Positions 31,479 to 37,590 of a DNA stretch of 64,000 nt are shown in pieces. Origin of the DNA: an uncultured delta proteobacterium. GTDB taxonomy: Bacteria; Myxococcota_A; Polyangia; Fen-1088. How positions within the stretch are numbered: position 1 is the stretch's first letter; each line of letters begins with the position of its first letter. The notes under the pieces are model-generated. The model was not told the origin of the DNA, searched no databases, and saw only the letters and a list, made by a program, of their open reading frames with translations. Both the position numbers and the translations under genes were made by a program. Where the stretch lies: positions 67,595 to 131,594 of the forward strand of contig CAWKJE010000003.1 of assembly GCA_963849735.1 (NCBI GenBank), in the 5' to 3' direction.

Positions 31479-31555
31479 GCTGCCGAGATCATGGGACATG
31501 GCCGCATGGAGTCAATAGGCGTTTGATTGCGCACGCGCGCGCTGGTTTCGAATGG

Positions 31556-31726
31556 CTAGCGCTTGGGCACGATGCGCGCGAGCCCGTCGGCGAGGAGCTC
31601 CGTAGCGAGCTCGGAGATGCCTTTATCCTGCATGGCCGCCGCAATGCGCAATTCGTGCGTCACCTCCTTGGGCAGGAGGAGCCCGATCTTCTCCAGATTT
31701 TCGGGTTTGCCGGCTTTCTTGGCCAT
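31556..31726 (-). CDS. small DNA-binding-like protein (56 aa, possibly ribbon-helix-helix); below the ORF-track length cutoff
   Basis: ATG at 31726 to TAG at 31556-31558: 'MAKKAGKPENLEKIGLLLPKEVTHELRIAAAMQDKGISELATELLADGLARIVPKR'. Divergent from the promoter at 31796-31824. Confidence 0.4.
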   Translation of the reverse strand: MAKKAGKPENLEKIGLLLPKEVTHELRIAAAMQDKGISELATELLADGLARIVPKR

Positions 31727-31795
31727 GAGTAAAGGGTACCACTACGCCAATTTTCGAGCAAAGCCTAGCAGTGACTCTCTCTAGTTTATATACCT

Positions 31796-31824
31796 TAGAC
31801 AAGAAGTTAGAAAAATGCCATAAT
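31796..31824 (+). promoter_or_regulatory. sigma70-like promoter (TAGACA-17bp-CATAAT) for a probably leaderless transcript
   Basis: AT-rich island in high-GC DNA: TAGACA at 31796-31801, 17-bp spacer, CATAAT at 31819-31824. The ATG at 31831 lies about 7 nt downstream of the -10 box. Confidence 0.4.
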
Positions 31825-31830
31825 ACGACC

Positions 31831-31989
31831 ATGACAAACAAAGCGCCTCTGGGATCGATCATGCTGTTCCCGCTCACGTTCTCGACCTGGTCGAGCGCTG
31901 AGCTCGCGATCCTCCCGGCCATCGCTCACGAACCATCGCCGAGCACGCGCTCCCACTACGCGGTCCTGCAAGCCGAGGCGAAGTCATGA
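31831..31989 (+). CDS. small ORF (52 aa), hypothetical phage-like early gene
   Basis: ATG at 31831 directly after the -10 box. Stop overlaps the next ATG (ATGA at 31986). Confidence 0.35.
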   Translation: MTNKAPLGSIMLFPLTFSTWSSAELAILPAIAHEPSPSTRSHYAVLQAEAKS

Positions 31990-32192
31990 TTGCCGTTGTT
32001 CTGGCCAGCGAGGCCAATCTGGTGAGGACGCTCATCACTTTCGCTCGCTGGCGACACTGCTCGTCCTGTGGCGAGCTCGTGCTCTACATCGACGAGCAGC
32101 TCGCAACCGAGGGCGACTTCGCCTGCGGCTCCTGCCACCACCGAGCCGCCTCTGCCCAGGCTGCGAACGATAACGGGGACGGTGACCTGTGA
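31986..32192 (+). CDS. small zinc-ribbon protein (68 aa)
   Basis: 'CSSCGELV...CGSCHH' (two CxxC pairs). ATGA coupling to the previous ORF. Confidence 0.4.
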   Translation: MIAVVLASEANLVRTLITFARWRHCSSCGELVLYIDEQLATEGDFACGSCHHRAASAQAANDNGDGDL

Positions 32193-35046: not shown

Positions 35047-35147
35047 GACCGGGTGCTCGCGCACGGGGTCTCTGGCCCTTTGACCGATCGGGGCTGGGTG
35101 TCCGCGCCAAGAGCGCGTTCGCCCCGTGCACGAGCTATAATGTACTG

Positions 35148-36074
35148 ATGAACAGGGCTAAGAAGGGTGGAAAGCGGGGTCCCGCGCGAAAAGAGCCGAC
35201 ACCGGAACAAATCGCTCGACTGCCAGAATTGTTGAAACGGGCGCGCCGTATTCATCAGTTCAACCAGGGATTCGATCTTCTGAGGGAGGCTGCGGCCCTG
35301 GCACGCAGCAGCGACGAGAAGATTGTCGCCGCTGAGAAAATGTGGCTGCAGATGCTCCTGGACCGCGAACCAAGGGCCCAACGGGTATCAAACGAAACCG
35401 AAGCATCGCCACCGCCTGCTTGTCTGTCTCCATCAACGAAGGTGACCAACCTGGCAGCGGAAGGTCGTGTGTCGCCTGGCCTCCCAACCGACGGGACCGA
35501 TGGGGTGCGGGCCGAGGCGCCATTGGATCAAGAACTAGGTGCGTTGCGCCAAGGCTCACCGCCTGCCGGCCAGCTACCATCCGAGAAGGCCACCGTAACC
35601 GACGTGGGAATCGGCGGAACGCCCGGCGTTCTTATGGCTGTCGCTCGAAGTCTATTGCGTCGCGTAGACGGCATCCTCAGGGAGGCGCTCCACGAAGCTG
35701 TTGACGGTGAGGATGTTGCCGAACCCGGTGAGGGGGTGGATCACGTCTATTATCGGCTGATCGAGAGCGAATTGGGGCTGGGTAGGACGGCAGCCGCGAG
35801 GCTATTGGTCAGGAAGAAGTTAGATAGCATGACGGATTACGAGCAGGACCGCCGGAGACAGCTGGTGAATCGGCGGCGGGGCGCGTCGAAGAAAGTGCTC
35901 GATCAGGCAAAGGCGCATTTTCTACCAGGGTTCAAAGCGTCGCTTGAGAAGCGAGGGATCCAGTTTGATCCAAAGGACGAACCATTGCTCGATCAATACG
36001 TCCGCCAAGCGCTCCTCGAAGCCACAGCCGATCCGACTCTTGACGCGCAGGTTCCTCTCGTCAAGCTCGGGTAA
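35148..36074 (+). CDS. hypothetical protein (308 aa)
   Basis: Long ORF beginning 'MNRAKKGGKRGPARKEPTPEQIARL...'. No known motif. Confidence 0.5.
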   Translation: MNRAKKGGKRGPARKEPTPEQIARLPELLKRARRIHQFNQGFDLLREAAALARSSDEKIVAAEKMWLQMLLDREPRAQRVSNETEASPPPACLSPSTKVTNLAAEGRVSPGLPTDGTDGVRAEAPLDQELGALRQGSPPAGQLPSEKATVTDVGIGGTPGVLMAVARSLLRRVDGILREALHEAVDGEDVAEPGEGVDHVYYRLIESELGLGRTAAARLLVRKKLDSMTDYEQDRRRQLVNRRRGASKKVLDQAKAHFLPGFKASLEKRGIQFDPKDEPLLDQYVRQALLEATADPTLDAQVPLVKLG

Positions 36075-36316
36075 TTCTGGACGCCAGCTTCGCTCATAAC
36101 GTCCAGCACTGAGCACCCGGAGGGTGGGAGGCTCTAGCTCGCGACCATGCCGAGTGTGCCTCGCACCAGGAACGCCCACCTGCTCATCGACGGTGAACCG
36201 ATCGGCCTCGACCGATTCGCCGACGTGGTGGCGATCAAGGTCATCGAGCAGCTCGGGCGGCGTGGTATCATTGCCCCCTCTGGCATTCGGTCGCACCGCC
36301 GAAAGGAGGACACCCA

Positions 36317-37495
36317 ATGGTGCGACAAGACGAACCCCGGGGACGGGTCCATGGACCGTACCCCTATCGGCGACAGTGGCGAGTCGTCGTGGTCCATGAG
36401 GATGGCCAACGAGATCATCGCTACTTCGCGACGCAAGAGGACGCAAAACAGGTAGCTCGATCATTGCGGCGGATGTTGGGAAAAGCTGCCGCCAAACTAC
36501 TCACGAAGGCGTTGGAGGAATACGAAGTGTTCGCGCGCGATGACCTCGGCAACAAGCCGACGTCGACGAAAACGACGGCGGCTCGGTTGACCCAGTTCTT
36601 CCTGGGCTACGACGGTAGCCTGGAAGATCTGGACGAGGCCGAGTGTGCCCGAAGGTACGAGACGCTCCGCAACCACACCACGGTTCATGGCAAACGCATC
36701 GCGGACACCACGCAACTGAACACCTTGGCCCAGGTAAAGACGTTCCTTGACTGGTGCGTGAAGAAGGGCTGGGCGAAATCCAACCCGGCGGCGAGCGTGG
36801 AAGGCAAGGGGAGGTATCGACACGGTAAGCCACAGCTTCGTGTCAATGAGGCTAGGCGGTGGCTGGCGACAGCGGCGAAGATCGCTCGAGAGGCGGAAAC
36901 GACAGGGAAGAAGGAGGGTGCTCTAAAGGCGATCCTCACGTTGTTGTTGGGCCTGCGGGAGTCAGAGGTCTTGAACCGACAGGTTCGGGACGTTGACGAT
37001 GGCGGGCGTTTGCTGTGGATCCCCGACACGAAGACGGAGGCTGGGAGGCGGACGCTGGAGGTGCCCGAGGAGATCGTTCCTCTTCTGCTTCGGCAAGCCG
37101 GGAACCGGCCCGGGATGGAACCGCTCTTTGCTCATCGAACGCGTGGCATCGCTCGCAAGTGGGTCCAGCGAATCTGCCGGCGTGCGGGCGTCATGGTGGT
37201 GGGGGCGCAATCGATGCGGGGCCTGCACGCCACGCTTGCCGTGAAGGCTGGCATCACCAGCCACGCGGTGGCGTCGGCGCTGGGCCACACGTCGTTCTCC
37301 ACGACAGCGAGGAGCTACGCCAAGCCGGAGGCGGTGGAGGGGGCCAAGCAGCAACGGGCGATGGCGGTGCTCAGCTCGCCAGCGCCCGCGAACGAGAACG
37401 CCGCCGAGCACCCAGACGACGAGAAGTTGCACAACTTTCTGCACAACTTTTCGCCATTTTCAGCGAACGCGTCAAAGGGTCGATCGGACAACTAG
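36317..37495 (+). CDS. int: tyrosine-type site-specific recombinase/phage integrase
   Basis: AP2-like arm-binding N-terminus ('GPYPYRRQWRVVVVHEDGQRDHRYFATQEDAKQ'). Catalytic region 'GLRESEV', 'HATLAVKAGITSHAVASALGHTSFSTTARSYAKPE' (R..HxxR..Y). AAGGAGG RBS. Ends 21 nt from the tRNA 3' end. Confidence 0.85.
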   Translation: MVRQDEPRGRVHGPYPYRRQWRVVVVHEDGQRDHRYFATQEDAKQVARSLRRMLGKAAAKLLTKALEEYEVFARDDLGNKPTSTKTTAARLTQFFLGYDGSLEDLDEAECARRYETLRNHTTVHGKRIADTTQLNTLAQVKTFLDWCVKKGWAKSNPAASVEGKGRYRHGKPQLRVNEARRWLATAAKIAREAETTGKKEGALKAILTLLLGLRESEVLNRQVRDVDDGGRLLWIPDTKTEAGRRTLEVPEEIVPLLLRQAGNRPGMEPLFAHRTRGIARKWVQRICRRAGVMVVGAQSMRGLHATLAVKAGITSHAVASALGHTSFSTTARSYAKPEAVEGAKQQRAMAVLSSPAPANENAAEHPDDEKLHNFLHNFSPFSANASKGRSDN

Positions 37496-37516
37496 CGAGA
37501 ATTATTAGCTTATTTG

Positions 37517-37590
37517 TGGAGCTGAACGGGATCGAACCGTCGGCCTCTAGAGTGCGATTCTAGCGCTCTCCCAGCTGAGCTACAGCCCCG
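37517..37590 (-). tRNA. tRNA-Ala (anticodon CGC)
   Basis: Minus-strand sequence GGGGCTGTAGCTCAGCTGGGAGAGCGCTAGAATCGCACTCTAGAGGCCGACGGTTCGATCCCGTTCAGCTCCA folds as a cloverleaf. Anticodon loop ATCGCAC, T-loop TTCGATC. CCA is not encoded. Confidence 0.85.

Follow-up and report, generated by a model that had tools for sequence, protein, structure and literature searches.

Defence islands at integration hotspots are a general concept, and within the Myxococcota tRNA-Asp is the integration target of Myxococcus phage Mx8. The locus described here, a tRNA-Ala(CGC) gene with a tyrosine integrase gene beside it, is located in a 64,000-nucleotide (nt) stretch of contig CAWKJE010000003.1, referred to throughout as the window. 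The host is an uncultured soil member of Polyangia (Myxococcota); the closest integrase homologues with a source name are metagenome-assembled genomes labelled Polyangia. For islands integrated into tRNA genes (tDNA), the Islander principle holds that a displaced tRNA fragment marks the far end of the island (Hudson, Lau & Williams 2015, PMC4383910). In an example given by the same source, the Mx8 integrase IntP extends across the phage attachment site, attP (PMC4383910, citing Tojo et al. 1996).

The window locus is similar to the Islander tDNA islands (PMC4383910) in the position of the integrase beside the tRNA, in an island-supplied 3′ segment which keeps the tRNA intact, and in presence or absence and alternative occupants among related genomes. 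It differs from them in that a displaced tRNA fragment was undetected in the window element and its relatives. A Myxococcota host and a tyrosine integrase at the element edge, beside a tRNA 3′ end, are shared with Mx8. Unlike Mx8, a complete temperate phage with int lying across attP, the window element has no phage genes. Its integrase gene also does not span attP as in the integrases of the Mx8/SSV type; the reading frame stops 20 nt outside the tRNA, without crossing the attachment site. The tRNA hotspot with an integrase and stacked type I-C CRISPR-Cas with WYL, Azaca-like ZacABC and insertion sequences (IS) resembles a defence island, although here the defence modules may be insertions independent of the integrase. 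The element is of an ordinary, well-known kind; its distinctive points are the orphan core proteins, the polymorphism of the hotspot and the missing left end.

The element is probably a non-phage genomic island whose tyrosine recombinase inserted it within the 3′ part of tRNA-Ala(CGC). Its core consists of five genes over about 4.7 kb (32842-37495). The features of the core and its target, with lengths in amino acids (aa) and with conserved short open reading frames (ORFs) included, are as follows.

37516..37589, minus strand: tRNA-Ala(CGC), the integration target, intact and apparently regenerated (ARAGORN; Rfam RF00005, 62.2 bits)
37516..37540: tRNA 3′ part (acceptor 3′ strand and T-arm) travelling with the element, from comparison of the window with the related locus L101
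36317..37495, plus strand: tyrosine integrase, 392 aa (PF00589, PHROG 1)
37428..37450, plus strand: tandem 11-mer TGCACAACTTT, two copies in the 3′ end of the integrase gene, encoding LHNFLHNF, with DNA-level conservation in all relatives
36147..36455, plus strand: conserved 102-aa ORF (orf102), upstream of the integrase and overlapping its start in another frame, recognised by conservation
35148..36074, plus strand: orphan p308, 308 aa, no family match
33691..35046, plus strand: orphan p451, 451 aa, no family match
32842..33459, minus strand: 205-aa protein with an N-terminal helix-turn-helix (HTH), divergent from p451-p308-orf102-int (HTH_17, PHROG 66)

Evidence for horizontal exchange is drawn from related loci, which were fetched and are designated by L-numbers (L101 is Ga0187889_10003101 and L117 is JBEKDU010000146.1). 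A metagenome scan with the 5′ end of the tRNA and the conserved tlyA upstream region yielded 27 loci. When a genome collection was scanned with the TlyA alignment, the best among the matches listed was only 60% identical, and the patterns were too conserved. The contigs carrying related loci were from peat and soil metagenomes.

One of these loci, L101, is a conspecific of the window strain. Its TlyA, epimerase, TolC and GreA are 99.6-100% identical to the window proteins, and the DNA of the two is ~99.8% identical over 37541-45282 and 71-79% identical left of the tRNA. Among the element proteins, amino acid identity is 76% for the integrase, 46% for p451 and 31% for p308. The mismatches nearest to the junction lie at 37526 and 37540, with the next only at 38036; from 37541 rightwards until that position the two sequences are identical. 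Positions 37526 and 37540, the only differences inside the tRNA, form the T-stem pair 50-64, which is A-U in the window and U-A in L101 and looks like one compensatory base pair. The polymorphic segment thus begins inside the tRNA, which is the pattern predicted for an element that arrives with a tRNA 3′ part of its own.

Clustering of right flanks gave three further groups in which the right flanks are at least 99.4% identical and the left flanks are unrelated.

L009, L097 and L095, compared with L090 and with L094
L096 and L108, compared with L110
L099, compared with L116

At least six unrelated classes can be distinguished among the sequences that directly follow the 3′ end of the tRNA.

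Integrase clade of the window element
Integrase clade about 30% identical
Integrase of 417 aa
Integrase of 379 aa with a resolvase
IS fragments
Native-looking flank common to L093, L100, L113 and L091

Although L091 has the native-looking flank, the 379-aa integrase lies about 1.1 kb away. Ordinary enzyme genes adjoin the tRNA in L113, and also in L106, which has its own flank. A few more distant relatives (L106 and L113) therefore appear to have an empty site, the kind of genome with which an earlier, sequence-only reading of this DNA had proposed a comparison, and the three groups above carry unrelated occupants. The tRNA-Ala site is a genuine hotspot, and the element is horizontally exchanged. 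Vertical inheritance of the element was rejected on account of the conspecific polymorphism, seen between the window and L101 and in the three other groups. The same core genes are found left of tRNA-Ala in relatives (L003, L006 and L121). The sequence-only reading had regarded such genes, if in conserved synteny, as grounds against an island; at first sight that objection seems to apply, but it fails on closer comparison, given the drop in identity between the two sides of the tRNA in L101. Shared gene content in relatives can mean site-specific reinfection instead of vertical synteny. An active recombination hotspot is documented here at tRNA-Ala in an uncultured lineage. At least five unrelated occupants compete for one tRNA-Ala site in uncultured peat and soil myxobacteria, with defence systems accumulating next to that site.

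The left junction of the L101 variant was not recovered, and the L117 contig breaks at the same place. L101 and L117 are independent records and both end inside the HTH gene, at the equivalent of window position 33122-33123. No convergence to the window sequence was seen at the L101 contig end. Exact look-up of the left-flank protein returned window-type contigs only, and no full-length HTH protein identical to that of L101 was present in the database searched. Site-specific integration is argued for as the general process at this site because the occupants in the other three groups are unrelated.

The target is the only tRNA in the whole window, placed by ARAGORN at 37516-37589 on the minus strand, and scores 62.2 bits against Rfam RF00005; an Rfam scan of 27-38 kb found nothing besides it. 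The integrase stop codon ends at 37495. The integrase gene does end beside the 3′ end of tRNA-Ala(CGC), as had been noted from the sequence alone, but the gap is 20 nt and not the 21 nt given there. The wider claim of an integrative element at the tRNA-Ala 3′ end holds as well: the integrase adjoins the tRNA and the region to the left is not conserved chromosome.

In its T-arm (37516-37545), the window tRNA-Ala(CGC) has the arms GACGG/CCGTT, identical to the tRNA-Ala(GGC) arm in L125, L126 and L129, the genomes that carry the more distant relatives of the integrase. The window differs in this from nearly all other tRNA-Ala(CGC) copies, whose T-arm is GTGGG/CCCAT. The window T-arm could be a trace of the element moving between two tRNA-Ala isoacceptor genes. 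L111 has the window-type T-arm in the absence of the element, which is a caveat for this idea.

The integrase gene is intact. Its product belongs to the PF00589 tyrosine recombinase family, with a profile score above threshold (44.7 bits against Phage_integrase, cutoff 27.1) and the catalytic residues present, and it matches PHROG 1, ‘integrase’, at E = 6.8e-34. When the protein is aligned with 14 homologues of 40-86% identity, residues R214, K239, R301, H324 and Y334 do not vary. In this subgroup the first His of the HxxR box is replaced by Q298, whereas the consensus of most relatives is H. In total, 599 integrase homologues were found. The tandem TGCACAACTTT may be an arm-type binding site. 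When it was used to seek the other arm, no second cluster and no further copy were found in the window.

The 205-aa HTH protein is probably the regulator of the element. It scores 20.3 bits against HTH_17, below the threshold of 27, and matches PHROG 66, ‘excisionase and transcriptional regulator’, at E = 0.0017; it has 45 homologues. DNA homology between L003 and L121, the closest two elements at 89-94% identity, begins precisely where the HTH gene stops, so that the core is sharply bounded on its left, at the equivalent of window position 32842.

The two large proteins encoded between the HTH gene and orf102 are orphans. The p451 family has 21 homologues among 5.8 billion clusters, none annotated, and p451 has no Pfam, PHROG, PADLOC or NCBIfam match. 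Its AlphaFold2 model, with a predicted local distance difference test (pLDDT) score of 70.6, starts with an alpha/beta domain, continues with a helix ~110 residues long and is helical in its C-terminal part. No fold match below E = 0.01 was found for it in PDB or BFVD; the top matches, which are non-significant, are phage tail-tip proteins (E = 0.02-0.06, TM score about 0.1). The p451 coiled coil also matches a gene on a Sandaracinus plasmid, but the match is weak (26%) and uninformative. For p308, the family comprises 13 representatives only, among 1.8 billion proteins. The p308 model is all-helical with a disordered linker (pLDDT 69.4) and has no significant PDB fold match, and profile searches of p451 and p308 against PDB sequences were empty. 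The conserved C-terminal helical domain of p308 (~residues 160-306) accompanies every examined integrase of the clade, with p308-like genes beside the integrase in L003, L006, L009, L121, L125 and L129. The 102-aa ORF is open and conserved in amino acid sequence in the window, L003, L006, L009, L117 and L121, and has no Pfam match; its position makes it a candidate for a recombination directionality factor. Within the element, p451, p308 and orf102 have putative roles. All three travel always or often with one integrase clade, are devoid of recognisable relatives and are reasonable candidates for new mobile-element functions.

The order HTH (minus strand), p451, p308-like gene, small ORF and integrase beside tRNA-Ala(CGC) and tlyA recurs in L003, L006/L007, L004 and L101/L117. 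The same core order is present in L121, whose contig ends just before the tRNA. A reduced form, with the p308-like gene and the integrase only, is found in L009 and L097. Integrases at 40-45% identity adjoin tRNA-Ala(GGC) and ilvC in L125, L126-128 and L129-131; these tRNA-Ala(GGC) elements carry HTH and p308-like genes, with or without p451. At a non-tRNA site, L123 has the HTH-p451 pair with an unrelated integrase and an HTH_17 excisionase. Between the window and L003 the element is 77.5% identical and the flanks 74-75%. No synteny was found between the left side of the window and the left flanks of relatives. The HTH-p451-p308-orf102-integrase core is a new but narrowly distributed island family.

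The element had been called phage-like in the sequence-only reading, a description that is not upheld: structural genes are lacking, and neither viral contigs nor phage genomes contain relatives. Capsid, portal, terminase, tail and lysis genes were absent by Pfam and PHROG in 28-37.5 kb, where PHROG matches were limited to the integrase and the HTH protein. The integrase, p451 and the p451 family alignment had no relative among 2.9 million IMG/VR viral contigs. Against 50,697 GenBank phage genomes the integrase gave one distant partial match, to an Enterococcus phage, and p451 gave none. Relaxase, coupling protein and type IV secretion families had no Pfam or NCBIfam match, although the orphans p451 and p308 might have an unrecognised function of this kind. 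With regard to satellites, an integrase and a divergent regulator are present, while Pfam, PHROGs and NCBIfam revealed no primase, replicase or packaging signature. An integrase beside a tRNA with orphan genes is not a prophage, which calls for caution in annotation.

From the known working of tDNA-targeting integrases, the circular form would carry a copy of the tRNA 3′ segment. A crossover on the 5′ side of the T-stem would split the host tRNA gene, and the element-borne segment 37516-37540 would then regenerate it. The ability of this copy to excise, as well as the position of its left end, is presumptive.

The failure to locate a second copy of the tRNA 3′ segment by eye, recorded in the sequence-only reading, was borne out by a direct-repeat search of the window and of the flanks of relatives. 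Probes of 22-23 nt from the tRNA 3′ part had no match elsewhere in the window with up to 3 mismatches, and no same-strand exact seed of at least 11 nt was present in the window. Across the 37.5 kb left of the tRNA, none of the 20-mers of its 3′ 48 nt recurs when up to 3 mismatches are allowed. Searches of the window and relatives with blastn-short, with the native downstream flank from empty sites also as query, produced nothing above chance. The short matches at 32582-32594, 29866-29874 and 28163-28171 were rejected as the left attachment site (attL) as they are at chance level, and so was an inverted partial match near 28508-28528. The displaced fragment was also missing in every relative with 7-11 kb of left flank. 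The left attachment site may have decayed, the shared core may be too short to detect, or the site may lie beyond the window.

Left of the core lie the following modules, in which RHH denotes ribbon-helix-helix and TPR tetratricopeptide repeat.

31556..32693: variable small-gene module, with an RHH-like 56-aa gene (minus strand) followed by ORFs of 72 aa, 68 aa (zinc-ribbon) and 118 aa (plus strand)
31556-31726, minus strand: the RHH-like protein, 56 aa
31330..31500, minus strand: PhaR-type (PHB_acc_N) DNA-binding domain pseudogene fragment (PF07879, 67.7 bits with the stop replaced)
28735..31114, plus strand: operon encoding a 150-aa membrane protein, a 322-aa TPR/PEGA protein and a 317-aa secreted protein, recognised by TPR/PEGA domains
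27140-28126, minus strand: WYL/WCX regulator beside the cas operon
19385-27129, minus strand: type I-C cas operon adjoining the CRISPR array
9670-18902: very large CRISPR array, in which the 37-nt repeat GTTTCAATCCACGCCCGGCCCCGAGGGGCCAGGCGAC occurs 130 times and the 129 spacers are 32-37 nt long
8328-9866, plus strand: IS transposase gene, Mutator/IS256 family
7417-8136, plus strand: IS transposase gene, DDE_Tnp_1
2184-7395, minus strand: SNF2/PLD/DUF6361 cassette, matching the PADLOC models ZacC (SNF2 helicase), ZacB (PLD-domain) and ZacA (DUF6361)

The arrangement described in the sequence-only reading, of an excisionase-type HTH gene, two large proteins without a family and a divergent small-gene module left of the integrase, is present in full, with the HTH match below threshold. 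The divergent promoter region of the small-gene module is AT-rich (31727-31830). The related element L123 encodes homologues of two of its proteins, the RHH protein (35% identity) and the zinc-ribbon protein (45%). Beyond the HTH gene, homologues of the 322-aa TPR/PEGA protein are found in L006 (49%) and, at full length, in L126 at tRNA-Ala(GGC) (55%). Homologous TPR genes occur in L003 and L123 too, both of which share the pair TPR and DUF4215. The island probably extends left to ~28.7 kb, taking in the RHH/zinc-ribbon module and, as probable distal cargo, the TPR operon. This extent is proposed because the RHH/zinc-ribbon and TPR genes co-occur in related elements and is not a mapped boundary. 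The PhaR-type fragment, between the TPR operon and the RHH gene, has an in-frame TAG and loses its frame downstream; the 131-aa plus-strand ORF called over it is probably spurious.

The 2184-7395 cassette is an Azaca-like defence system. The content of the left side is thus accessory in type, as the sequence-only reading had it, with the CRISPR-Cas system, IS elements and helicase/PLD cassette all confirmed. Its suggestion that the whole left 37.5 kb is one island stays conjectural: the region is pieced together from distinct accessory modules, which are not tied to the integrase by any boundary repeat. The GC content is 0.57-0.60 in the cas genes and 0.65 in the Azaca-like genes, and at third codon positions (GC3) it is 0.62-0.78 in the left genes against 0.74-0.81 in the right genes. 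The 129 CRISPR spacers had no real match to the element or to any of the fetched loci. Defence cargo or defence neighbourhoods appear to recur in the element family. L123 (1-484, 481-2201) adjoins the conflict-system genes LmuB_C, MC3 and CTD7, and L009 (1-5679) adjoins HD-CE and a 1300-aa KaiC-like ATPase.

Several observations count against an island integrated by its tyrosine recombinase. No displaced tRNA fragment was found in the window or within up to 11 kb left of the tRNA in L003, L006 and L009, so that classical delimitation of the island fails, and excision may be beyond this copy. The integrase carries Q298 where the HxxR box has its first His, and no function in replication, transfer or packaging could be recognised. 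As both contigs end inside the HTH gene, the left junction of the segment that varies between the window and L101 is missing; for this pair, homologous replacement and integrase-mediated turnover consequently cannot be fully told apart. The core may instead be an immobilised remnant, once integrated at tRNA-Ala, which has lost attL and is now inherited vertically, its variants being swapped by homologous recombination that relies on the conserved tRNA at one end and on other conserved sequence at the opposite end. The lack of an attL repeat in any genome with 7-37 kb of left flank would fit such a history, as would the PhaR-type pseudogene, the rearranged modules left of the core and, between species, an element identity close to that of the host (77.5% against 74-75% for the window and L003). 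This explanation is nevertheless rather unlikely, since the integrase and orf102 are intact and well conserved and divergence begins exactly at the tRNA 3′ segment. Four independent conspecific groups with different occupants, unrelated integrase families among them, are also hard to obtain by homologous recombination alone.

A different delimitation would make the whole left side, of at least 37.5 kb, one tRNA-Ala island with attL beyond the window and the CRISPR-Cas, Azaca-like and IS modules as cargo. In favour of it, the window contains no attL, the genes left of the tRNA are all of accessory type without synteny to the left flanks of relatives, and related elements adjoin defence genes (L123, L009). 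However, no attL was seen even in L003, where only ~7 kb separate the element from dprA and comF-like genes, the core has its sharp conserved left edge at the HTH stop codon, and the heterogeneous GC content together with the IS elements points to separate acquisitions. So large an island is very unlikely. Least credible, and close to negligible, is a phage satellite or highly reduced prophage in which p451 and p308 would serve helper hijacking or be unrecognised virion proteins. The small size, the integrase at one end, the divergent regulatory switch and the orphan proteins are in keeping with a satellite, and the best fold matches of p451, non-significant as they are, are phage tail-tip proteins. 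Structural, terminase, primase and replicase signatures are nonetheless lacking in Pfam, PHROGs and NCBIfam, none of the 129 spacers matches the element or its relatives, and no relatives turned up among the viral contigs, even with the family alignment as query, or among the phage genomes. It is also doubtful, at a long shot, that the core represents a hitherto unknown class of self-sufficient small mobile element or phage satellite restricted to Polyangia, whose orphans would have a new replication, transfer or helper-exploitation function and whose integration would leave no displaced tRNA fragment. If true, the absence of that fragment would imply a non-classical attachment-site geometry or a very short core.

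Right of the tRNA, the sequence-only reading had seen housekeeping genes throughout. These are mostly conserved, with the exception of a TolC-MFP-MFS-TetR efflux operon (39624-44464, minus strand) between the epimerase gene and greA, which is absent there in L003, L093 and L115.

Within the left side, the Azaca-like cassette is separated from the distal end of the CRISPR array by the two IS transposase genes, which are of different types. Two overlapping ORFs (4313-5383 and 5169-6464) make up the ZacB-like region, a split that may be a frameshift or an artefact of ORF calling. A 164-aa ORF (28132-28626, minus strand) has a GC content at second codon positions (GC2) of 0.70, higher than its GC3 of 0.58 and unlike all of its neighbours, and has no family match. 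It is probably not a gene, in which case the ~600-bp stretch would be the divergent promoter region of the WYL-cas and TPR operons.

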